Source: Anaerolineales bacterium (GTDB lineage Bacteria; Chloroflexota; Anaerolineae; Anaerolineales; E44-bin32). From it: 62,622 nucleotides of DNA. The stretch is taken from NCBI GenBank assembly GCA_041554155.1, contig JBFFMI010000001.1, positions 1-62,622 on the forward strand. The letters are read 5' to 3'. Of the stretch, positions 9,412 to 62,622 are shown one piece after another. Positions within the stretch are counted from its first letter, which is position 1, and each line of letters begins with the position of its first letter. The notes beneath the pieces were generated by a model that worked only from the letters and a program-made list of their open reading frames with translations, was not told the DNA's origin and did not search any database. The translations under genes were made by a program, and so were the position numbers.

Positions 9412-10386
9412 TTATTCTTCAGTCCCCGGTGCATTTTCAAGAACTTCCTCAATACGTTCTAGCACCTCTGGAGTCAGTTTCTCCAGTAACTCGACGGCGC
9501 CCAGATTGTCTTCCAGGTGCTCGAGTCGGGTTGCGCCTGTGATCACGCTGCTTACTTGAGGGATCCGGAGCAACCAGGCAATCGCTAGCTGGGCCATGCT
9601 GGCCCCCAGCTCGTCGGCTACTTGCGTCAATTCTCGAACCAATTCTACCCGCTCCGGTGTTACGACCTTCTCTCCCCACTCCCGTTCGCGGGTGAGCCTG
9701 GTCTCCTGCTCGGGATCCCCTTGATTGTATTTTCCGCTCAGCAACCCGAATTTCAGCGGACTCCATGTGACCATCCCGAACCCGAAATCACTGGAAGCTG
9801 GAACCAGCTCGTCTTCAAGCTTTTTTCTTACAAGCATGTTGTATTGCGGTTGCTCAACCATCGGGGCATACCCACCCACCTGATGAGCGATCCCATGTGC
9901 GTTAGCAATCTGGGCGGCACGCCATTCAGAAGTACCCCAGTAGAGCACTTTACCCTGGCGGATGAGATCATCCATCGCCCGCACGACTTCGTCCAGAGGC
10001 GTTTCTTCATCGTAGCGATGGCAGAAGTACAAATCCAGGTAATCGAGTCCCATCCTTTTAAGAGAGGCCTCGCAAGATTCCATGATGTGCTTTCTGGAGA
10101 GACCCTTGCCAGTAGGTCCGGGCATCGTGCGCCAGAAGACTTTGCTTGAAACGACCAAGCCCTCGCGCGGGAGATCTTTAATAGCTGCTCCCATCACCTG
10201 CTCTGCTTTACCATTGGCGTAGATATCTGCGTTGTCAAAAAAGTTAACCCCGGCGTCATAAGCCCGGTGGATTAGATCGCTCGCCATAGTCGCATCGATT
10301 TGATCACCAAAAGTCACCCAGGCACCAAGCGAGATGGCGCTTAGTCTTAACCCGGTGCGTCCCATATTGCGATACTCCACATGCAC
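9412..10386 (-). CDS. Aldo/keto reductase (Kv-beta-like subfamily)
   Basis: Full-length AKR signature: GLRLSAISLGAW, FFDNADIYANGKAE, YLDLYFCHR, GKVLYWGTSEW. Confidence 0.85.
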   Translation of the reverse strand: MHVEYRNMGRTGLRLSAISLGAWVTFGDQIDATMASDLIHRAYDAGVNFFDNADIYANGKAEQVMGAAIKDLPREGLVVSSKVFWRTMPGPTGKGLSRKHIMESCEASLKRMGLDYLDLYFCHRYDEETPLDEVVRAMDDLIRQGKVLYWGTSEWRAAQIANAHGIAHQVGGYAPMVEQPQYNMLVRKKLEDELVPASSDFGFGMVTWSPLKFGLLSGKYNQGDPEQETRLTREREWGEKVVTPERVELVRELTQVADELGASMAQLAIAWLLRIPQVSSVITGATRLEHLEDNLGAVELLEKLTPEVLERIEEVLENAPGTEE

Positions 10387-10547
10387 CTCCTGTACGTTAG
10401 GACCTACGTTCTATGCCGCCGGGATTATAACCCGACCTAAGCTATGGTTAATTGCCCAGAGGGATATGAAGCTCTGCTCAACGCTCTTTAATTTGCGAGT
10501 CGAGAAATTTTATCTCCAGTCGAAGCTCCCCAAAACAGGAGGTTGCT

Positions 10548-11483
10548 ATGAGTACGTCAGAAGGTAAGGGAATTAGCCTCGAACGCATTCTTATTATCGT
10601 TTTAGCTGTTTTACTTCTTATGGCTTTGTTCTATATCGCTTTCACAATGGGACGCAGGAGCGCACCGGCCTCACCGCAAGTTGATAGCGCCGCAGAACAA
10701 CCGGGGTCTGAAGAGCTTCCACCCTCCGCTGATGAAGGCCAAGAAGCAGTACAACCAGGCGACGAACCAGCGGGGGATGAACTATCTGCGCCAGCTGCCG
10801 AAGCCAGCCCAACTTCAGGGGCTCGTCGTCTTGAGCTCGAGCCGACACCTACCCCCTTTGCTGTAAGTGATCCAGAAGATCCGCGCTCGCTGCTCGATCT
10901 GGCCAACCCCGATTACGTCGACTACTTCAACAATCCGGATAACTGGTACGACTATGAAACCGAGAATATCGCCGCCTATCGTGTCGAGGGCGGGCACCTA
11001 TTCGGGATTGATTATGATCCCCTGAATAAAGGCGTTTACTGGTCCTACACCTCGATGCAGTCTGGCCGGGTGTACGCTGAGATCAGCGCCACCAATGGGG
11101 ATTGCGCTGGGAGAGATGCAGTGGGCTTTACCATCCGCATTGATCCACAAAAGACACCCAGCGGCTATGCCTTTGAGGTCTCGTGTGATGGTGCCTGGCG
11201 ATTGCTTCGCTATCGCGAATCGGGACCAACTGCAACACAGGTGGATTGGACTGCATCAGATGCGATCAATAAAGGCCTGGGCGCGACCAATCGACTCGGT
11301 ATTTGGGGTTACGACGGCAAGTTTTATCTGTTTGTTAACGGTTTTGAAGTTGGGGAGCACTGGGACTCGGGCATGCCCTATAGCTTTGGTTACTTTGCTG
11401 CATATGTGCGTTCTGCGGTCACCTATGATCTAACAGCAACATTTGACGATTTTGCCTTTTGGAATATACCATTTATTCCATGA
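10548..11483 (+). CDS. Membrane-anchored secreted protein, paralog 1 (TM + acidic/Pro linker + about 200-aa ConA/LamG-like beta domain, tentative fold)
   Basis: AGGAGG SD. N-terminal TM. C-terminal domain has DCAGRDAVGF..GYAFEVSCDG..FDDFAFW, shared with the next two genes. Confidence 0.6.
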   Translation: MSTSEGKGISLERILIIVLAVLLLMALFYIAFTMGRRSAPASPQVDSAAEQPGSEELPPSADEGQEAVQPGDEPAGDELSAPAAEASPTSGARRLELEPTPTPFAVSDPEDPRSLLDLANPDYVDYFNNPDNWYDYETENIAAYRVEGGHLFGIDYDPLNKGVYWSYTSMQSGRVYAEISATNGDCAGRDAVGFTIRIDPQKTPSGYAFEVSCDGAWRLLRYRESGPTATQVDWTASDAINKGLGATNRLGIWGYDGKFYLFVNGFEVGEHWDSGMPYSFGYFAAYVRSAVTYDLTATFDDFAFWNIPFIP

Positions 11484-12466: not shown

Positions 12467-13255
12467 ATGTCACCATCACGAGATCCCTTACTCTTGTTCG
12501 TGGCCGGTTGCTTATTCCTTTCCGGGTGCATTGGCGTTGACGCGCAGCCCATGCCTACACAGACTCCTTCGCCTGTTGCTCCTAGCCCAACCGTTGCTTT
12601 CCCCACACTCCTTCCCACTTCAACTTTTACCCCTCTTCCTACAGGTACCGCCACGCCGGACCTATCGTCCAGTCCGGGCAATACCTTCTTTGCAGACAGG
12701 TTCTCAGGAGACTTGAATTGGGCACAAGCCGCACTCGCACCAGGCGGATTGAGCCTCGCCCAGGGGCGCCTGGTGATTTCTGTGCGCCAGGCGAACAGTC
12801 TTTATATGGCGATCAGCCCTGCCGATCCAGTCCCCAACACATATCTCGAAGTTGATGTTCGACCGGAAATATGTTTGGACAACGATGAGTTTGGTCTGGC
12901 ATTCAGGATCAATGAAGACTTCGAGCATTACCGCTTCACCCTGACGTGTGACGGCCAAGCCCGGGTTGTGGGGGTTGTTGAGGGAGTCGAGCGCATACTT
13001 ATCCCCAGCACTGACTCTGATGCGATATTTCCAGGTCTTTTTCTTACCAATCGTCTCGGCGTACAGATGGAGGATGATCAATTTCGGTTTTACATCAACG
13101 GCGAGGAGCTATTCAGCGATCGCGATCTCAGCCTGCCCTCTGGTCGGTTCGGTCTCGTGGTACGAGCCCGCCAGAGTGGACAAACAACAGCTTCCTTCGA
13201 CAACTTCAGCATCCGACTACTTCAGCCGCCAACTACCAACACGCCCTCGGATTGA
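12467..13255 (+). CDS. Lipoprotein, paralog 3 of the same family
   Basis: Lipobox FLSGC and a PT-rich linker. CLDNDEFGLAF..YRFTLTCDG..FDNFSIRL. Confidence 0.6.
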   Translation: MSPSRDPLLLFVAGCLFLSGCIGVDAQPMPTQTPSPVAPSPTVAFPTLLPTSTFTPLPTGTATPDLSSSPGNTFFADRFSGDLNWAQAALAPGGLSLAQGRLVISVRQANSLYMAISPADPVPNTYLEVDVRPEICLDNDEFGLAFRINEDFEHYRFTLTCDGQARVVGVVEGVERILIPSTDSDAIFPGLFLTNRLGVQMEDDQFRFYINGEELFSDRDLSLPSGRFGLVVRARQSGQTTASFDNFSIRLLQPPTTNTPSD

Positions 13256-13259
13256 GCAA

Positions 13260-14105
13260 ATGACGGCAAAACGCCCCTTCAAGAACAAACTTAATGATTT
13301 GAACCCAAAGCAGTGGATTAAATTTCAAAAATCTTGGTTCATCCATAACCCTCCCCCGCGCAAAAAAGATGTCGTGCGTCACCCGGCAAAATTCCCTGAA
13401 ACCCTTGCCCAGAGTTTCATTGAATTTTTCACCAAGCAGGGCGACACTGTGCTTGACCCCATGGCCGGTACCGGTTCAACGTTAATCGCTTGCCTGCGGG
13501 CAGGACGACATAGTGTTGGCATTGAGCTCAATCCCGAATATGCCGCAATAGCACGTGAGCTCATCGAGCAAGAGGGGCGAGCCCTTGGAAAGTCGGCTGC
13601 AAGCCTGCGAGCAGAAGTATTCACCGGCGATGCCGCTCTTGCTGAAGAATATAGCCTACCGATGATTGATTATTTATTTACCTCTCCTCCGTATTGGAAT
13701 ATGCTGCATGCCCGGGGTGCAGAGACTCAGAAAAAACGACGCTCATCAGCCAGCATGGATGTGGTCTATTCAGACAACCCATCCGATCTCGGCAACATTG
13801 AAGACTACCAGGAATTCCTTGATCGGTTGGTAGATATTTATGCGGCACTTCTGCAGTATTTAAAACCCCAGGCCTACTTGACCATCATCGTAAAGAATTT
13901 AAAGAAGGGTGGTCGGATATATCCCCTTGCATGGGATCTGGCGCAGAGGTTAAGCACCTTCCTGACTTTAAAGGATGAGCGTATTTGGCTCCAGGATAAC
14001 GTGCCGCTCGCACCCTATGGCATGGGCAATGCCTGGGTAAGCAATATCCATCATCACTATTGTCTCCAGTTTCGATATGAGCCTGACCCCCATCCGGATC
14101 GATAG
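13260..14105 (+). CDS. N4/N6 DNA methyltransferase (PF01555-like) with permuted motif order; SPPY motif suggests m4C (inference)
   Basis: HPAKFPETLAQSFIEFF..GDTVLDPMAGTGSTLIA..GIELNPEY (motifs X/I/II) lies N-terminal to LFTSPPYW (motif IV). ATG 13260 is 4 nt after the paralog 3 stop. The longer track ORF from 12948 overlaps paralog 3 and is rejected. Confidence 0.7.
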   Translation: MTAKRPFKNKLNDLNPKQWIKFQKSWFIHNPPPRKKDVVRHPAKFPETLAQSFIEFFTKQGDTVLDPMAGTGSTLIACLRAGRHSVGIELNPEYAAIARELIEQEGRALGKSAASLRAEVFTGDAALAEEYSLPMIDYLFTSPPYWNMLHARGAETQKKRRSSASMDVVYSDNPSDLGNIEDYQEFLDRLVDIYAALLQYLKPQAYLTIIVKNLKKGGRIYPLAWDLAQRLSTFLTLKDERIWLQDNVPLAPYGMGNAWVSNIHHHYCLQFRYEPDPHPDR

Positions 14106-14247
14106 ACCAAGCACACCAGGCACTCCTCTCGCTCACATTTACAACGCGTGATCATGCGATCCGGTTAGCAGTCAGGCTTGCGCCTTCTTCGACTGGCATG
14201 TATGCTTGGCGGCTGAGTGCAATCCCACATACAGGAAATACCAAATA

Positions 14248-14892
14248 ATGTACATAGCAATCGAAGGCGTTATCGGGGTTGGGAAAACTTCCCTGACACG
14301 TTTGTTGCAGCCTGAATTTCAATCGGAAATTATCCTGGAGATATTTGAGGAGAATCCTTTTCTCAGTGACTTTTATGGGGATCGCAAACGCTATGCTTTC
14401 CAGACACAAATCTTCTTTTTGTTGAGCCGATACCGGCAACAACGCGAGGCGATTCCCAATCTGCTGGCAAAAGGGAACCTGCTCTCAGATTACACCTTCG
14501 AGAAGGATGCGATCTTCGCCCACCTGAATCTATCCGGTGATGAGCTGGAAACCTACAACCTCGTACATGAAGCCCTCGCCGAAAGGATACAGAGGCCCGA
14601 TCTGATTGTGTATTTGCGCGCCGAGACGGAGACCGCCATGCAGCGTATTGCCATGCGTGACCGTTCCTATGAGAGAAACATGGATCGCGAGTATATCAAC
14701 CAACTCAATCGTGCCTATGAGGAATTCTTTAGTGGCTACAAAGGGACCAATGTGCTCGCCCTCGATACAACACCGCTCGATTTTGTTGCCAGCAAAGAAC
14801 ACCTGCACGTGATCATCAATCGAATAAAAGGCAGCCTTGGAATACCCCCTTATCAACAAGAATTACCACTTCAAAACGAGAGCGACGCGTGA
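14248..14892 (+). CDS. Deoxynucleoside kinase (dAK/dCK/dGK family)
   Basis: MYIAIEGVIGVGKTS P-loop, FQTQIFFLLSRY, DR-type motif and LRAETETAMQRIAMRDRSYE lid. Confidence 0.85.
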   Translation: MYIAIEGVIGVGKTSLTRLLQPEFQSEIILEIFEENPFLSDFYGDRKRYAFQTQIFFLLSRYRQQREAIPNLLAKGNLLSDYTFEKDAIFAHLNLSGDELETYNLVHEALAERIQRPDLIVYLRAETETAMQRIAMRDRSYERNMDREYINQLNRAYEEFFSGYKGTNVLALDTTPLDFVASKEHLHVIINRIKGSLGIPPYQQELPLQNESDA

Positions 14893-15881
14893 AGATTGAC
14901 CGCCAGCACTTGATCGATCTGGCACGGGATGAGACACTCCGGCGTGCCAATCATGGTGATGTTCTATCAGGATATCTTATGGGCACTGTGGCAGGAGGTG
15001 ATCCTCTCCTGGGAGACACAGCCGATATCGATCTTGTGTTAATCCATCAAGCTGCTCCACCTTTGGCGCGCGAAGCAGTGCGCTTATCCCACCAAGTTCA
15101 TTTTGACATTACCCACCATCCTAAAGACCTCTACATGAAACCCAGTGACCTGCGTATTGATCCATGGCTGGGACCTGCACTTTGTGAGCCGATTTTTCTT
15201 CACGATCCTGAGCATTTCTTCGAATGGGCCCAAGCCGGTGCAAGGGGACAGTTCTTCAGACCCGATCACGTCCATGCACGGGCCACCGCTTTTATAAAAC
15301 GTGCACGGCAGGGGCACTCCCTTCTCGGTTTGTCGCAACGCTGGTTGAAGATATACCTGCGGGCGGTGATGGAAACCGCAAATGCGGTCGCGTCACTGGA
15401 TCGCTTCCCCGCGAGTGGTCGGCGTCTCGCACTCGATCTCGCCCGGCAGGCGGAGCACTTCGATTACGCCGGGCTTTATACAGATTTTCAGAGACTCATC
15501 GGCGGTGATTTGCTCTCAAGCTGGGATATCCCGAATACCCTTGCCGTATGGGCCCGTGCCTACGATACTGCATCCGAGGGTCCCTCAGCACAAAGCAATC
15601 CCCCATGCCGCCGCGATTATTACCTGCACGGATTCCAGGCCATGGTCGAAGATGGATCCGCAGATTCTATTCTGTGGCCGTTGCTGCAAATCTGGGAACG
15701 CGTCATGGCCTCGCTCGAAGAGACAGAAGAGAACCAGCCCCATTTCCAGGGCTGGCAAAACTTTCTGGAAGAGATCGGTTTGAGCGAAGCGGATAAGGAT
15801 CAGCGCAGCCAGATGCTTCATGCTACGATTGAAGCGAATGCTGCCTGGATCGAGCAATGGGCTGCCAGGAACGGAGCATGA
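14889..15881 (+). CDS. Pol-beta-superfamily nucleotidyltransferase-domain protein with helical C-terminal domain, function unknown
   Basis: G(T/S)-x9-13-DxD pattern: MGTVAGGDPLLGDTADIDLVLIH, with a possible third acidic residue in HFDITH. GTGA overlap upstream and ATGA overlap downstream. Confidence 0.5.
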   Translation: MKIDRQHLIDLARDETLRRANHGDVLSGYLMGTVAGGDPLLGDTADIDLVLIHQAAPPLAREAVRLSHQVHFDITHHPKDLYMKPSDLRIDPWLGPALCEPIFLHDPEHFFEWAQAGARGQFFRPDHVHARATAFIKRARQGHSLLGLSQRWLKIYLRAVMETANAVASLDRFPASGRRLALDLARQAEHFDYAGLYTDFQRLIGGDLLSSWDIPNTLAVWARAYDTASEGPSAQSNPPCRRDYYLHGFQAMVEDGSADSILWPLLQIWERVMASLEETEENQPHFQGWQNFLEEIGLSEADKDQRSQMLHATIEANAAWIEQWAARNGA

Positions 15882-16573
15882 GCAAAACATCTATGTCGAC
15901 CGAACCCAAACGTTTTGTAGCCGTGGCCGGCAACATCGGTGTGGGAAAGTCCACGCTTGTTGACCTACTGTCAAAGAACCTGGGCTGGTCGCCCTTTTAT
16001 GAACCTGTCGGTGACAATCCCTATCTCGCAGACTTTTATGCGGACATGACTGCCTGGGCTTTTCAATCTCAGATCTTCTTTCTCACTCGAAGACTTTCTG
16101 CCCACCGTGCCCTATTGGATCATCCTACATCAGCCATACAGGATCGCAGCGTTTATGAGGATGCAGAAATTTTTGCCCATAACCTCTTCCTGCAGGGCAA
16201 TATGACGGAGCGTGATTATCGATCCTATCGTGAGCTCTACCTCGTGCTGGCCCAATTTCTTCCACCACCCGATTTGGTGATCTATTTGCGCGCTTCCGTT
16301 GACACGTTGATGGAGCGCATCGCATTGAGAGGCCGTGAGTACGAGCGCAAGATTGAACCACTGTATCTGAAACGGTTAAACGATCTGTATGAAACCTGGA
16401 TTGATAAGTTCACCCTCTGCCCGGTGCTTACCGTTCCTTCCGATGATCTGGATTACGTTGCCCATGATTCCCATTTGAACTTAATTGTTGAAAAGATCGT
16501 GGAAAAGATTGCTGGCAAGGATCAAGTGGTCTTTGCAGATGACGAAGTGGCCCGTATAAACGGTTTCACGTAA
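15878..16573 (+). CDS. Deoxynucleoside kinase (second paralog)
   Basis: VAVAGNIGVGKSTL P-loop, FQSQIFFLTRR, DRSVYED and LRASVDTLMERIALRGREYE. The start overlaps the upstream stop (ATGA). Confidence 0.85.
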   Translation: MSKTSMSTEPKRFVAVAGNIGVGKSTLVDLLSKNLGWSPFYEPVGDNPYLADFYADMTAWAFQSQIFFLTRRLSAHRALLDHPTSAIQDRSVYEDAEIFAHNLFLQGNMTERDYRSYRELYLVLAQFLPPPDLVIYLRASVDTLMERIALRGREYERKIEPLYLKRLNDLYETWIDKFTLCPVLTVPSDDLDYVAHDSHLNLIVEKIVEKIAGKDQVVFADDEVARINGFT

Positions 16574-19151: not shown

Positions 19152-20115
19152 ACCGAAACCCAGGGTCTATTTTCTCCATGGTGATGATGAATTTGCCATG
19201 GCGGAATTTATCAAGGACTTAAGACTGAAAGTCGGTGATGACTCGACCGCAGATATGAATATCGTCACCTTCAACACTTCCGATCTCGATTGGGCTGATC
19301 TCGAAGCAGCTGCCAATTCCACACCCTTCCTCTCCGATCGCCGACTGCTTATCCTCTACGAAGTCGAAAAGATAAAGAATGCCCCGGCCCGCAGTGATCG
19401 TCTGATTGCCCTGTGTGAACATATACCAGAAAGCACGGCGCTTCTTCTTGTCGAGCGCAATCCAAAAACCTCGTCAAAGATGTCGCCGATACACAAATGG
19501 GCGAAAAATAACCCTGAAATTTCTTTCATACGCACATGCACCACACCTCAGGGGGCAAGGTTCAGATCCTGGTTGGAGGAACAGGCTGCCGCTCATGGGG
19601 GATCCTTCGAACAAGATGCAGCAGAGCTGCTCGCCGAGTGGACACAGGAAGACCCCCGCCTCGCATCTCAGGAGCTACGCAAGCTTCTGGATTATGTAGA
19701 TTTGCAACGTGCAATCCGTGTCGAAGATATCGAACAGTGTACGCCTTATCGCGGTCAAACCACTATTTTTGCGCTCGTTGACGCGCTGGGGCAACGACGC
19801 GGTGAGGAAGCACAAAAGATTCTTCATCAGGTTTTGCAGGATGCGGATGTTAGATCAGTTTTTGGGATGATCATTCGCCAATTTCGATTGATCCTGCTGG
19901 CCAGGGATCTGATGGACTCCGGAAAAGTCCCCGGCAACACGATCCATAAGAGCGACTTTGTCGTTAAGAAAGTTAGCACGCAAGCACGCAATTTTACACT
20001 CGCGGACCTTGAACGGATCTATCATGAACTTCTGGCTATCGATTTGCGTTCAAAGAACGGGGAGATGGATCTCGAGATTGCCCTCGACAGCCTCGTATCC
20101 GTCATAACCTCCTGA
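19144..20115 (+). CDS. holA: DNA polymerase III subunit delta
   Basis: YFLHGDDEFAMAEF N-terminus and about 320 aa of helical delta-like architecture. Confidence 0.7.
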   Translation: MNKPKPRVYFLHGDDEFAMAEFIKDLRLKVGDDSTADMNIVTFNTSDLDWADLEAAANSTPFLSDRRLLILYEVEKIKNAPARSDRLIALCEHIPESTALLLVERNPKTSSKMSPIHKWAKNNPEISFIRTCTTPQGARFRSWLEEQAAAHGGSFEQDAAELLAEWTQEDPRLASQELRKLLDYVDLQRAIRVEDIEQCTPYRGQTTIFALVDALGQRRGEEAQKILHQVLQDADVRSVFGMIIRQFRLILLARDLMDSGKVPGNTIHKSDFVVKKVSTQARNFTLADLERIYHELLAIDLRSKNGEMDLEIALDSLVSVITS

Positions 20116-20128
20116 ACAACCTTCTTCT

Positions 20129-20380
20129 TCAAGCAGTTTCCAGTACTTCTTTTTTCTCTTCACACCCTACCCAAAAATGTTCTGGCAAGACTTTAGCACT
20201 CGTCTCGACTCTAACAATGGGAATAGACGCGGGGTCCACTTCACCCAGCGTCATTGGATGCAGGACACAAGTGTTGGGTCGACGACCATACTTTTCCTGA
20301 TAGTAAGACGTAGCTCGTTCAACACGCGACGGCAAGCTCTTTGAAGGATCTTCATCCAGCCACAACATGCCAATATTCAT
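20129..20380 (-). CDS. Small hypothetical protein (83 aa), third gene of the putative SOS operon
   Basis: ATGA overlap with the upstream gene. No TM segment and no recognisable domain. Confidence 0.5.
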   Translation of the reverse strand: MNIGMLWLDEDPSKSLPSRVERATSYYQEKYGRRPNTCVLHPMTLGEVDPASIPIVRVETSAKVLPEHFWVGCEEKKEVLETA

Positions 20381-20649
20381 TCGCCACCTCCCTGGGGGAT
20401 AAGCGTCTCAAGACGCCAATACTTTCTGAACTCGTCGTAGGATATCGAACAGCGCAGACCCCCATGTGTTCGTATTTGAAATATCCTGCAATTCACCAAC
20501 CCCTGGGTCTGTTCTTTCAACTCGTCCGTTACGCCATCCACCTTCCATATCCTGTGCTGACGCGCTCGCCACGTAAAGGCTTCCGGTACCACTGAACCTG
20601 ACGATTGGACCACTCTAATCGGCTCCCGCACCTGTACCAACCTCATCAA
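20377..20649 (-). CDS. Small hypothetical protein (90 aa), Trp/Arg-rich, second gene of the putative SOS operon
   Basis: 17 nt downstream of the ATPase gene. Contains PEAFTWRARQHRIWKV. No TM segment. Confidence 0.5.
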   Translation of the reverse strand: MMRLVQVREPIRVVQSSGSVVPEAFTWRARQHRIWKVDGVTDELKEQTQGLVNCRIFQIRTHGGLRCSISYDEFRKYWRLETLIPQGGGE

Positions 20650-20666
20650 AGCACCTCAATTCAACC

Positions 20667-21671
20667 CTACCTGCGCTCACATGCTCTCCAGCCCGAACGC
20701 GTCAATTCAACTGCGGTATCCAGATCGCGCGCGGTCAACCAGGCGATATCGACAGTTGTCTCATTGTGACGCTCCTTGAACATGAACCTGCCGACAATCG
20801 GCGCGTGGTTATTGCCTGTGGCCGACGCAGGGAAAGCGCGTGCCATACCAGGCAGGGACCGCAAGGAGGGCAACTGTTCGAACACAGCTGAGCGGCATGC
20901 ACCAACCACATGCACACCGACTTGCCGCCCGCTCAAGCCGATTTCATACAGCAACGGATCGAGTGCTGGCCCCATAACGTCAAGCAGGCCTGCCAGTTCG
21001 TCGATGAACAGGAACATGTGGGGGTTTGAAAAACCGATCCGCTTACGGTGTTCGATCTCTTGCAATAGCCAGTGCAGCAATTCAGCGGCGTAGCCCGCCT
21101 CGCTGGCCAACATATACGTCGACTGGGGCAGTGCTTCCATGACCGCCAGCTCCCGCCCTCCAAGATCGATGCCGAGCAGTTGAACCTCGCTGCTGCGGCT
21201 GGTGAGCGCTAAAGAGAGCAACAACGAACGCAAGAGCTCTGACTTGCCCGATCCGCCCGGCGCGCTGATCCATGCGTGCCAGGTTGGCGAGCGCGCCCAG
21301 TCGATCAACAACGGCCGTTGATCGGTCTGCATGCCCACCAGCGAAGTGCACGGTTGTATGCCACGCAGCGCGTGGAGCAGCGGCAGCATCCGCACGCCAG
21401 CAGCCGGGTGAAATGGCATATCCATGGTGACACCATCCACCTCGGTCTGAATCTGCAAGCCTTCAACACCCAACGTTTCCGCTAAGCGATCAACAGCAAC
21501 CACCAGGCTCTGCACCCCGGTACCGACGTTCGGAGTGAGGTGGTAGCGAACACGATCCTCGCGAACGATGCCACCTTCGACGCGCGCCGGGGCATCATAA
21601 TCCAGAAGCATGGCCTCGATTTGATCTGCCTGCCGATCAAGGTAACCAGAAGGAGAGAACGCCCTTTGCAT
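20667..21671 (-). CDS. Soluble FtsK/SpoIIIE-like P-loop ATPase (alpha+beta motor only; no TM anchor, no gamma domain)
   Basis: FtsK-alpha-like N-terminus (IEAMLLDYDAPARVEGGIV..VRYHLTP..GV). Walker A APGGSGKSELL. Walker B MFLFIDELAGLL. GVHVVGACRS matches the FtsK sensor region. GGAGGTG SD upstream. Confidence 0.65.
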   Translation of the reverse strand: MQRAFSPSGYLDRQADQIEAMLLDYDAPARVEGGIVREDRVRYHLTPNVGTGVQSLVVAVDRLAETLGVEGLQIQTEVDGVTMDMPFHPAAGVRMLPLLHALRGIQPCTSLVGMQTDQRPLLIDWARSPTWHAWISAPGGSGKSELLRSLLLSLALTSRSSEVQLLGIDLGGRELAVMEALPQSTYMLASEAGYAAELLHWLLQEIEHRKRIGFSNPHMFLFIDELAGLLDVMGPALDPLLYEIGLSGRQVGVHVVGACRSAVFEQLPSLRSLPGMARAFPASATGNNHAPIVGRFMFKERHNETTVDIAWLTARDLDTAVELTRSGWRACERR

Positions 21672-21705
21672 CTCACACCTCCAAAAGATTTACCCGCTCC
21701 CAATA

Positions 21706-21717
21706 GAACGGGTGTTC
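21706..21717. promoter_or_regulatory. LexA (Cheo-type SOS) box 1
   Basis: GAACGGGTGTTC lies within the 20-bp inverted repeat AATAGAAC-GGGT-GTTCTATT, immediately downstream of the minus-strand -10. Confidence 0.7.
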
Positions 21718-21718
21718 T

Positions 21719-21748
21719 ATTCTAACAGAACATATGTTCGCCTGTCAA
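21719..21748 (-). promoter_or_regulatory. Near-consensus sigma-70 promoter of the FtsK-like operon
   Basis: On the minus strand: TTGACA (21748-21743), 18-nt spacer, TAGAAT (21724-21719). Confidence 0.65.
21728..21739. promoter_or_regulatory. LexA (Cheo-type SOS) box 2
   Basis: GAACATATGTTC is a perfect palindrome. With flanks it reads aGAACATATGTTCG, 13 of 14 matches to CGAACATATGTTCG. It lies in the promoter spacer. Confidence 0.75.
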
Positions 21749-21816
21749 GACCCGCTGCCGCCAACCCTTTAACACAAGTTGTTTATGCTAAAATCGATTG
21801 TGCAGTGGCAGAAAAC

Positions 21817-22653
21817 ATGGACCTTCGACCCTCCCCGATCGCGGGAACCTGGTATCCCGGCGATGCCGAGAGCCTGGCGATCTCTATTGACCAATTCCTG
21901 CATGATGTTGAGCCAAAAGATATCCAGGGGCAGATCGTCGGATTAATCGTCCCGCACGCCGGGCATCGCTATTCTGGCGGTGTCGCCGCTCACGCTTTTC
22001 GCCTGATCCAGGGATATCAACCTGAAGTCGTCGTGGTACTCTCGCCGCTGCATACGTATGCGGATGAGGTCATTCTGACCACAGACCACGATGCCTACGC
22101 AACACCGCTGGGAGCTGTCCCGGTAGATCACGATCTGACCCTGAAGCTTGCAACGCAACTTGAGCAGGACCACGGATTAAGACTCGGACGCATACGCAAC
22201 GACCGCGAGCATTCGCTTGAGATCGAACTTCCGTTCCTGCAGCGCTGCATAAAGAGTGCGTATTCGCTGGTGCCGATCATGGTGCGCGAACAGAGCACCG
22301 AGGTCGCACAAGCCCTGGGCCAGGAAATCGGGAAACTTATGCAGGATCGCTTCTGTCTCATCATCGCCAGCTCCGACCTTTCACATTTCTATCCACAGGA
22401 AGTTGCCGAGCGCCTCGATCGGGCTATGCTGGATCATCTTGAGCAATTTGACCCACCCGGATTGATCGAGGCCGAGCAACAAGGTCGCGGGTTTGCATGT
22501 GGCCGCGGTGCTATCGCTGCTACACTTTGGTCGACCCGATTTCTGGGCGCGAATCGAGTTGAGGTGCTGACACACGCAACCTCAGGCGACATCACCGGGG
22601 ATTATGATTCGGTGGTAGGCTATGGTTCGGCCGTGATCTACCACGAGGTCTGA
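21817..22653 (+). CDS. MEMO1-family protein (AmmeMemoRadiSam system protein B)
   Basis: PSPIAGTWYPGD, IVPHAGHRYSGGVAA and SSDLSHFY motifs. ATG 21817 is preferred over the track start at 21712. Confidence 0.8.
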   Translation: MDLRPSPIAGTWYPGDAESLAISIDQFLHDVEPKDIQGQIVGLIVPHAGHRYSGGVAAHAFRLIQGYQPEVVVVLSPLHTYADEVILTTDHDAYATPLGAVPVDHDLTLKLATQLEQDHGLRLGRIRNDREHSLEIELPFLQRCIKSAYSLVPIMVREQSTEVAQALGQEIGKLMQDRFCLIIASSDLSHFYPQEVAERLDRAMLDHLEQFDPPGLIEAEQQGRGFACGRGAIAATLWSTRFLGANRVEVLTHATSGDITGDYDSVVGYGSAVIYHEV

Positions 22654-27979: not shown

Positions 27980-29314
27980 TTAGACGGTCACACCTTCGAA
28001 CAGTTGCTCCCGGATCGCCATGACATCACGACGCAGTGTGTCATTCGTCTCGAGTTGCGCTCCGATTTTCTCACAGCCATACAAGATCGTGGAGTGATCC
28101 CGTCCCCCGAGCAGATCGCCAATTTTTGGCAGCGAGTTTGATGTTTCCTCACGGATGAGATACATGGCCACTTGCCGGGCGAGCGCAACCGCTTTCGAGC
28201 GATCACGTCCGATTAATTGTTCCGGCTCGAGCCTGAAACGTTCCGCAACGGCCGAGATGATGTCATCGGTCGTCAGGCTTCCACGTCGCACCATAAACTC
28301 CCCAAGGGCCATATCCACCAAGGCAGGTGTCAGGGGTTGACCGCTCAAATCAGCATACGCGAGCACGCGAGTCAAGGCACCCTCAAGTTCGCGAATATTG
28401 CTTTGCACACGCTGGGCGATCAACTCCAACAGCTCGGCGTTAACTTCTCGGCCAGCCCGATCCGCTTTGAATCGCAGAATCGCCAGCCTGGTTTCGAAAT
28501 CGGGAGTCTGGATATCGGCCGTCATGCCCCACTCAAAGCGTGATCGCAGGCGTTCTTCGAGTGTGACCAGTGAGCGCTGTGGGCGATCGGACGAGATCAC
28601 CAACTGTTTATCCTGGCCGTGCAGAGTGTTGAACGTGTGGAAAAATTCTTCCTGGGTCGATTCTTTGCCGGCAATGAATTGGATATCATCGATCAACAGC
28701 ACATCTATCCTGCGATACCGCTCTCGGAAGATGGCCGTATTCTGGGATCGGATGGCGTTAACAAGATCATTGGTGAACTCTTCAGAAGACACGTAGAGCA
28801 CGTTTAATCCAGCCTCTATACAGGCATGGCCCACCGCATGGAGAAGATGCGTTTTTCCCAACCCCACGCCACCGTAAAGAAAGAGCGGGTTATACGCTTT
28901 CGCAGGGCTTTCCGCCACCGCCTGAGCAGCCGCATGGGCCAAGCGATTTCCTGCTCCAACCACAAATGTCTCAAAGGTATAGCGACGGTTTAATATGCTG
29001 GATATCGGGGCACTCGGCTCCTGTACGGGAACAGGGAGGATAGGCTCGGCGTGCTGCTCGTGCGTTGCACCTTGCCAAACAACAAAGCGGACATCGACCG
29101 TTCTTCCAAGGATCCCGGTAAGCACTCGCTTTGCGGTAGCCAGGAGCCGATCCTCCAGCCAATCACGAGCATAAGCATTACGAACCCCGATAACAAAGGT
29201 GCTGTCTTCGTACGTGAGATACTCAGCATCGCGAACCCAGGTATCAAAGGCACCGCGCGGCAATTCCATTTGCAATTGTCCAAGCGCTGCTTGCCAGTGT
29301 TGCTCTGCGTTCAT
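27980..29314 (-). CDS. dnaA: Chromosomal replication initiator protein
   Basis: NPLFLYGGVGLGKTHLL, LLIDDIQF, and a C-terminal domain IV ending DHSTILYGCEKI. AGAGGTG SD upstream. Confidence 0.95.
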   Translation of the reverse strand: MNAEQHWQAALGQLQMELPRGAFDTWVRDAEYLTYEDSTFVIGVRNAYARDWLEDRLLATAKRVLTGILGRTVDVRFVVWQGATHEQHAEPILPVPVQEPSAPISSILNRRYTFETFVVGAGNRLAHAAAQAVAESPAKAYNPLFLYGGVGLGKTHLLHAVGHACIEAGLNVLYVSSEEFTNDLVNAIRSQNTAIFRERYRRIDVLLIDDIQFIAGKESTQEEFFHTFNTLHGQDKQLVISSDRPQRSLVTLEERLRSRFEWGMTADIQTPDFETRLAILRFKADRAGREVNAELLELIAQRVQSNIRELEGALTRVLAYADLSGQPLTPALVDMALGEFMVRRGSLTTDDIISAVAERFRLEPEQLIGRDRSKAVALARQVAMYLIREETSNSLPKIGDLLGGRDHSTILYGCEKIGAQLETNDTLRRDVMAIREQLFEGVTV

Positions 29315-61915: not shown

Positions 61916-62622
61916 AGCAGATTTGGATCGCTATCAGACTTGTCAGGATTCAGGGGTAGCCACAGGGTGAAGGTGCTGCCTTTTTGTTCCTCACTCTCCA
62001 GGGTGATCACACCCTTGTGACGGGTGAGGATCTCTCTGCAGATCGATAAACCCAGGCCAGTTCCAGGCGTTCCCATCTTGCGGCTCGTCTCACCACGATA
62101 AAAGCGTTCGAACACCTGTTCGCGTTCCTTCTCCGGGATCCCCAGCCCGGTATCGCGCACAGCCAGTGTGACCCATTGTTGCCGATCTTTTTCCACCACG
62201 CGCGTGATCAGGGTAACCGAACCGCCGGCCGGCGTGTAATTCAGAGCATTCGTCATAAGGTTTGCGATGACCTGCGAAATCATTTGCTCATCAGCCAGCA
62301 CCGAAGGCAGATCGCTCTGGAGGCTCAGGCCCAGGGTGAGATCACGATCCCCGAATAGTCGACGGCGATCTTCAACCAGGCCACGGGCAAGGACATTGAG
62401 ATTGGATGAGACTGGATATGGGGTAGCTGTACCAGCATCCAGACGAGATATCGCCAGGAGATCTTCGATCAGGTTCACCAAACGATTTGTTTCTCTATTG
62501 AGCGTGCGCATGTAGTCATCGAATCGGTCCTTATGACCTTTTCGCAAGAGATCCAGATAGAGGCGTATATTGCTCAATGGCGTGCGCAGTTCATGCGAGA
62601 CATCCGATACGAACTGCGTCTT
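61912..62622 (-). CDS. Sensor histidine kinase, partial (N-terminus beyond the window edge)
   Basis: H-box SHELRTPLSNI lies at the window edge. N-box LMTNALNYT. G-boxes DTGLGI and GTGLGLSI. Confidence 0.85.
   Translation of the reverse strand, partial: KTQFVSDVSHELRTPLSNIRLYLDLLRKGHKDRFDDYMRTLNRETNRLVNLIEDLLAISRLDAGTATPYPVSSNLNVLARGLVEDRRRLFGDRDLTLGLSLQSDLPSVLADEQMISQVIANLMTNALNYTPAGGSVTLITRVVEKDRQQWVTLAVRDTGLGIPEKEREQVFERFYRGETSRKMGTPGTGLGLSICREILTRHKGVITLESEEQKGSTFTLWLPLNPDKSDSDPNLL

Follow-up and report, generated by a model that had tools for sequence, protein, structure and literature searches.

A 47-bp element upstream of a three-gene operon in an Anaerolineales contig is very probably a LexA-repressed promoter with two AGAAC-N4-GTTCT operators, which would make the operon damage-inducible. 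The initial annotation had proposed SOS repression through dual LexA operators, and we find this reading, drawn from comparative sequence analysis, well supported because the boxes are conserved in 28 orthologous promoters, the cassette is linked to lexA and stands behind it in other Chloroflexota, and the same motif occurs on Anaerolineae lexA promoters. The window, by which we mean the whole 62,622-nt stretch of DNA analysed, holds no recA, lexA or uvr gene (none in 62.6 kb), and we therefore infer the cognate LexA from the class.

On the minus strand, positions 21669-21750 read cTTGACAggcGAACATATGTTCtgtTAGAATaGAACACCCGTTCtattgggagcgggtaaatcttttGGAGGTGtgagATG. The elements follow one another as cTTGACA, 3 nt, GAACATATGTTC, TGtTAGAAT, A, GAACACCCGTTC, the leader, GGAGGTG and the ATG at 21671 (Table 1). 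The hexamer TAGAAT at 21724-21719 is separated from the -35 by an 18-nt spacer. Both boxes overlap the core promoter: the distal one, with its 12-mer core GAACATATGTTC at 21728-21739, lies in the -35/-10 spacer, and the proximal one, with its core GAACGGGTGTTC at 21706-17, lies just past the -10 within a 20-bp palindrome, AATAGAAC-N4-GTTCTATT. The expected transcription start, predicted at ~21711-21713, would be covered by the proximal box. In a consensus scan of positions 20000-22500 this promoter was the only sigma-70-like site, with 11/12 hexamer matches and a TG before the -10. The earlier description of a near-consensus promoter agrees with these matches and with the spacer length, and its coordinates for promoter, boxes, Shine-Dalgarno sequence and ATG were all correct on re-reading of the sequence.

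Table 1. Positions in the window of the promoter elements, the leader hairpin and the genes of the operon
Feature	Position	Strand	Evidence or remark
-35 hexamer TTGACA (cTTGACA)	21743..21748	-	consensus scan; invariant, 2.0 bits/position, in 25 orthologous promoters
Distal LexA-type box (box 2) cGAACATATGTTCt (minus strand)	21727..21740	.	fills the -35/-10 spacer
Extended -10 TGtTAGAAT	21719..21727	-	TG flagged by consensus scan; TG-n-TAnnAT kept in orthologs
Proximal LexA-type box (box 1) aGAACACCCGTTCt (minus strand)	21705..21718	.	begins one base past the -10
Leader hairpin ACCCGTTCT-ATTG-GGAGCGGGT, then TCTTTT	21692..21713	-	terminator-like match in consensus scan
Shine-Dalgarno GGAGGTG (21682-21676) and ATG (21671-21669)	21669..21682	-	GGAGG before the start codon kept in orthologs
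Gene 1, FtsK/SpoIIIE-like ATPase, 334 aa	20667..21671	-	only Pfam match PF01580 (FtsK_SpoIIIE), E 5.8e-18
Gene 2, DUF6504-family, 89 aa	20377..20646	-	PF20114, 22.6 bits, under the 24.2 cut-off
Gene 3, 83 aa, unnamed family MxxGMLWFDxD...KYG..P..C.VHP...HFWLGV	20129..20380	-	start overlaps the stop of gene 2 (ATGA)

Conservation was assessed in 28 orthologous promoters, made up of 25 non-redundant metagenome promoters, those of two named Anaerolineales MAGs and that of locus L122. The metagenome contigs were scanned with aligned N-terminal sequences of the ATPase (112 residues, a family-specific region), which returned 44 loci; over this 112-residue region the orthologs were 34-88% identical to the window ATPase. 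Every ortholog locus with upstream DNA carried two perfect GAAC-N4-GTTC boxes, located ~60 and ~38 nt upstream of the start codon. The arms of both boxes were perfect in 28/28 promoters; the N4 spacers and flanks varied. Across the 25 non-redundant promoters, all 8 arm positions of each box reached 2.0 bits, and the -35, the TG and the T-A...A-T of the -10 reached 1.8-2.0 bits. The central two N4 positions carried 0.2-0.4 bits and the outer N4 positions were better conserved; the distal box showed 10 distinct N4 sequences and the proximal box 12. Further upstream than the -35, the DNA of these 25 promoters could not be aligned. The flanks TA...TA of the proximal box were conserved, and the common design was cTTGACA, N3, GAAC-N4-GTTC, TG-n-TAnnAT, one or about nine bases, and GAAC-N4-GTTC-TA. 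Two Anaerolineales MAGs, with ATPases 73% and 38% identical to that of the window, retained the PriA-CNNM-Memo synteny together with both boxes. No box was found at a remote FtsK-like paralog (27% identity) that has neither a DUF6504 nor an 83-aa neighbour. In 303 kb of Chloroflexota loci there were 71 perfect sites, nearly all in cassette promoters or lexA promoters, and the Anaerolineae box consensus was (A/T)AGAAC-N4-GTTCT(A/G).

The spacing between the boxes was less constant than their arms. The box starts are 22 bp apart in the window, as the initial annotation had held when it placed both boxes on the same DNA face, and the same interval was found in 17 promoters. In 11 of the 28, however, the spacing was 27-31 bp (27, 29, 30, 31), so that helical phasing and same-face cooperative binding are not a conserved feature.

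The window contains 4 GAAC-N4-GTTC sites where 0.88 are expected, and 0 of 100 shuffles reached 4. Besides the two promoter boxes these are a site at 22225, inside the Memo gene, and one at 62110, inside a histidine-kinase gene; a single further site had been reported before, and there are two, though both are intragenic. We consider the idea that the boxes are functionless chance palindromes to have a negligible probability. The small size of the motif is the one point in its favour. Against it stand the excess of sites in the window and the 28 promoters in which two perfect sites keep their place with respect to the -35 and -10 while the remaining bases outside the promoter elements have changed; we regard the idea as refuted by this conservation. 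When the 14-mer was searched at <=2 mismatches, 25 matches were found in the window against 21.3 expected, which is chance level; the window therefore has no other SOS-promoter look-alike. One near-match, AGGACCTACGTTCT at 10399-10412, differs from the 14-mer by one mismatch and has an aldo/keto reductase gene (9412-10386, minus strand) on one side and an ORF at 10548-11483 (plus strand) on the other. It is probably due to chance, because near-site counts are at background.

The proximal box and the downstream GGAGCGGGT can pair as a 9-bp hairpin at the predicted mRNA 5' end. This raises an explanation in which the palindromes act as an RNA leader hairpin or attenuator and not as protein operators, and both the terminator-like hairpin with its TCTTTT tract and the minimum free energy of the window leader (-15.1 kcal/mol) would suit it; the leader of a close relative, L099, folds at -13.9 kcal/mol. 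We nevertheless judge such a role highly improbable. Being upstream of the -10, the distal box would be left out of the transcript, and the strong hairpin is present in the closest relatives only. RNAalifold returned the 4-bp box palindrome as the sole conserved structure of the leader, with no compensatory changes, and folding was not weakened when 5' arms were swapped across orthologs (self -6.6 versus cross -6.0 kcal/mol). We rejected the hairpin both as a conserved element and as a covarying one on these two results; it is probably lineage-specific and incidental.

The region 20129-21671, named in the initial annotation as the transcribed stretch, holds three genes and not one: translation meets stops once 334 codons have been read, and the annotations of six publicly available copies of the contig agree on the three. 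Gene 1 encodes an ATPase that consists of the alpha and beta motor domains, with a Walker A motif GGSGKS and a Walker B motif FIDE; the Walker A lysine and the Walker B aspartate are invariant (K143 and D224). Its family profile matches the FtsK motor structures 2IUU (E 3.5e-35) and 2IUS as well as EccC, and the PF17854 alpha domain was found in relatives. The alignment to FtsK spans alpha/beta only, the membrane, linker and gamma (KOPS/XerD) domains being absent from the 334-aa protein, and its NCBIfam FtsK score is 25.5 bits against a cut-off of 1566. As it has no membrane or gamma domain, we call the ATPase FtsK-like and not an FtsK ortholog; it probably acts as a soluble hexameric dsDNA motor. 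We found 86 homologs of 320-376 aa, and all those with an organism name are from Anaerolineales. A scan of genome contigs with the Walker A peptide yielded only actinobacterial FtsK/EccC proteins of ~30% identity, with neither DUF6504 nor 83-aa partners, and these were set aside.

The two small proteins are less readily classified. Although the product of gene 2 scores below the PF20114 cut-off, 13/13 aligned orthologs match this family (best E 1.1e-9), so that DUF6504 membership is likely. DUF6504 was found alongside the ATPase in every cassette type, with the exception of the Chloroflexia-type loci and L138. The start of gene 3 overlaps the stop of gene 2 (ATGA), its orthologs follow the ATPase in at least 20 loci, and the 83-aa family comprises about 1200 cluster representatives at E<=1e-3. 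The 83-aa protein had no match in Pfam, NCBIfam, PADLOC, PHROG or PDB. Searches of PADLOC, PHROGs and NCBIfam with both small proteins gave no match, and PDB profile searches of the DUF6504 and 83-aa families gave nothing below E 0.2. Longer members of the 83-aa family showed no informative domain fusions, and single-sequence AlphaFold2 models were poor (pLDDT 59 for the 83-aa and 48 for the 89-aa protein). Against the PADLOC defence models the ATPase had only P-loop-level matches (SspH, mad8, HerA) and the small proteins none, and no phage relatives of the operon proteins were found.

The operon sits in a chromosomal, core-like contig with priA, holA, holB, dnaA, radA and clpC, which named homologs assign to Anaerolineales, Chloroflexota. 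The Memo gene, with its start at 21817, is divergent, and the end of the operon is convergent with holA. The dnaA gene (27980-29314, minus strand) is 6 kb from the operon, and since radA, clpC, priA, holA and holB are also nearby, the contig may be origin-proximal; a search near dnaA with the E. coli consensus found no E. coli-type DnaA-box cluster. Elsewhere in the window, 12948-16573 holds, after an N6/N4 DNA methyltransferase gene, two deoxynucleoside-kinase genes with a 330-aa ORF between them that has no recorded Pfam match.

In more distant Chloroflexota, the FtsK-like gene is physically joined to lexA. Tblastn with LexA placed lexA immediately upstream of these FtsK-like genes and on the same strand. 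In L113-117 the order is lexA, FtsK-like gene, DinB_2, an 82-aa homolog of the window 83-aa protein, and DUF6504; in the Chloroflexia-type loci L123, L125 and L129 it is lexA, an S24-domain protein and the FtsK-like gene. The protein between lexA and the FtsK-like gene (L123:5185-5940, L125, L129, L120) has 251 aa, and in these Chloroflexia-type loci it shows only an S24 peptidase domain (the LexA/UmuD-like C-terminal half) with no recognised DNA-binding domain. We looked up six matches to the LexA of L114 (L131, L134, L135, L136, L137, L138). In 5/6 of these (L131, L135, L136, L137, L138) a lexA gene, here lexA2, is followed by the FtsK-like gene and small ORFs; the L134 sequence breaks off within the N-terminal part of the FtsK-like gene. 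DUF6504 was present in 4/5 lexA2 loci (L131, L135, L136, L137) and was not detected in L138. These cassettes are often extended by DinB_2, YCII/ABM and AlkZ-like DNA-glycosylase genes, and the DinB_2 and AlkZ-like neighbours are a DNA-damage context. A second lexA (lexA1) lies just upstream of lexA2 in 4/5 loci, and both tandem lexA genes of L131 score above the TIGR00498 cut-off (176 and 173 bits versus 111).

The lexA promoters themselves carry the motif. All four lexA1 promoters, from Anaerolineae MAGs, read TTGACA-N2-3-GAAC-N4-GTTC-N2-5-TATAAT; the motif thus lies in the -35/-10 spacer of a LexA-type repressor gene's own promoter, which is the classical signature of autoregulation. All six lexA2 promoters have dual boxes arranged as in the window, both perfect in three and with one arm mismatch in the distal box in the other three. 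A perfect box was also found on the lexA promoters of L114 and L123/L129. These findings bear on the possibility that some unrelated transcription factor reads GAAC-N4-GTTC and has the palindromes as its operators, in which case the operon would not be damage-inducible. We think this very unlikely: although no lexA was found in the window, several Chloroflexota lineages have the cassette joined to lexA operons, lexA promoters carry the motif at autoregulatory positions, and experiments have established it as the LexA box of Firmicutes and Actinobacteria (PMC3323433).

The boxes might alternatively be bound by a cassette-dedicated LexA2-type paralog encoded elsewhere in the genome, which would make the operon a specialised branch of the damage response. 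LexA2 forms a distinct subfamily of 471 proteins (E<=1e-10), and its gene is followed by the FtsK-like gene in 7/7 loci examined. It is in tandem with a LexA1-type gene at the four loci with upstream DNA, and its promoters share the dual-box design of the window. Moreover, some LexA2 proteins carry IGASLP in place of the Ala-Gly site, so the regulatory logic of the clade may exceed a single LexA. We still hold a dedicated LexA2 to be an unlikely reader of the window boxes. None of the 28 window-type loci has a lexA2 adjacent to the cassette, and LexA1 and LexA2 promoters bear the same motif, so that both paralogs probably read the same operator. A dedicated LexA2 would in any case alter which LexA binds and not the kind of element. 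The LexA of the window species was absent among the 120 matches listed for the L114 LexA, which are all of the cassette-linked LexA2 type and include none from the window's assemblies. With E. coli RecA as a tblastn query, no recA was found in the window or in 54 Chloroflexota loci, a set that does not include L131-L141.

Several further features of the lexA loci were seen. The IGASLP replacement of the Ala-Gly self-cleavage site was found in the LexA2 of L131:4001-4612, L135:4001-4609 and L137:3001-3609; Ala-Gly is kept in the LexA2 of L136, L138, L134 and L114 and in all LexA1, and the catalytic Ser and Lys are kept in all. In three Anaerolineae MAGs, the 5' leaders of lexA1 (L131:3040-3160, L135:3075-3170, L137:~2060-2150) contain the direct repeat TTGGGA(T/A)AA four to six times, downstream of the -10 and ahead of the start codon; these repeats could be the site array of a second regulator or an RNA element. 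At L136:354-632 there is a second, weak DUF6504-like ORF (E 1.9e-7) by a cinA fragment, ~1.5 kb upstream of lexA1.

Together, these data suggest a model of LexA repression at the dual operators. A LexA dimer on the distal operator, in the -35/-10 spacer, would keep RNA polymerase off the promoter, and LexA on the proximal operator, over the start, would prevent open-complex formation or escape. As long as the cells are undamaged, both operators would be occupied and the operon silent. Upon DNA damage, activated RecA would trigger LexA self-cleavage, both sites would clear, and transcription from 21671 to 20129 would yield the ATPase, the DUF6504 protein and the 83-aa protein. Two operators would be expected to give tight repression and probably late induction. 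The ATPase could then work as a hexameric dsDNA translocase in repair or in post-repair chromosome processing. Elsewhere in the Chloroflexota the cassette begins with a lexA paralog of its own under the same dual-box promoter design, and the window operon is the form without lexA. As the two promoter designs are superimposable, the window-type promoter most likely descends from a lexA2 promoter after loss of lexA2. It is an even call whether the ATPase, the DUF6504 protein and the 83-aa protein form an undescribed Chloroflexota SOS effector module, in which small adaptor subunits would serve a soluble hexameric dsDNA translocase and whose ancestral form was headed by its own LexA paralog. Such a module, with a motor where lexA2-imuA-imuB-dnaE2 has a polymerase, may work on chromosomes that are damaged or undergoing recombination; removing or remodelling stalled complexes, handling repair intermediates and separating linked sister chromosomes are conceivable tasks.

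The operator itself is an ordinary, textbook one; the new part is the regulated cassette, which is undescribed in the SOS response. In the library searched, nothing relevant was found on DUF6504, PF20114 or a Chloroflexi/Chloroflexota SOS regulon. The analysis provides a phylogenetically footprinted Anaerolineae LexA motif, AGAAC-N4-GTTCT, from more than 60 sites in a phylum whose SOS network is essentially uncharted. It would also place three uncharacterised families, the motor-only FtsK-like ATPase, DUF6504 and the 83-aa family, in the DNA-damage response. The tight association of the cassette with a dedicated LexA paralog suggests an SOS module that is ancient and self-contained, and makes the functions of the three families directly testable.

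Compared with known systems, the window boxes are closest to the Gram-positive-type operator, with which they share the overlap with the promoter core, although the host belongs to the Chloroflexota. The B. subtilis Cheo/SOS box (consensus CGAACATATGTTCG) has the same palindromic core, and the distal box matches the idealised 14-mer at 13/14 positions, the same figure as given in the initial annotation. The flanks differ, being CGAAC...GTTCG in B. subtilis and (A/T)AGAAC-N4-GTTCT(A/G) in Anaerolineae. LexA of Dehalococcoides is reported to be a precedent for GAAC-N4-GTTC. Several LexA boxes per promoter occur in B. subtilis and at lexA and recN of E. coli.

The organisation of the cassette resembles that of lexA2-imuA-imuB-dnaE2 of Proteobacteria, in which a second LexA paralog reportedly heads a damage-response operon with its own operators; some lineages are said to retain that cassette and its operators without the leading lexA, which is the form of the window cassette. 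The cargo is different: there is no ImuA, ImuB or DnaE2 but an FtsK alpha/beta ATPase, a DUF6504 protein and an 83-aa protein, to which some relatives of the window cassette add DinB_2 and AlkZ-like genes. A loose functional precedent for an FtsK-family DNA motor under LexA control is E. coli ftsK, which is SOS-induced from the dinH promoter (PMC4080785). However, E. coli FtsK is a 147-kDa septal membrane protein whose gamma domain reads KOPS and activates XerD, whereas the window ATPase has 334 aa, no membrane or gamma domain and small partner proteins, and is additional to the cell-division FtsK.
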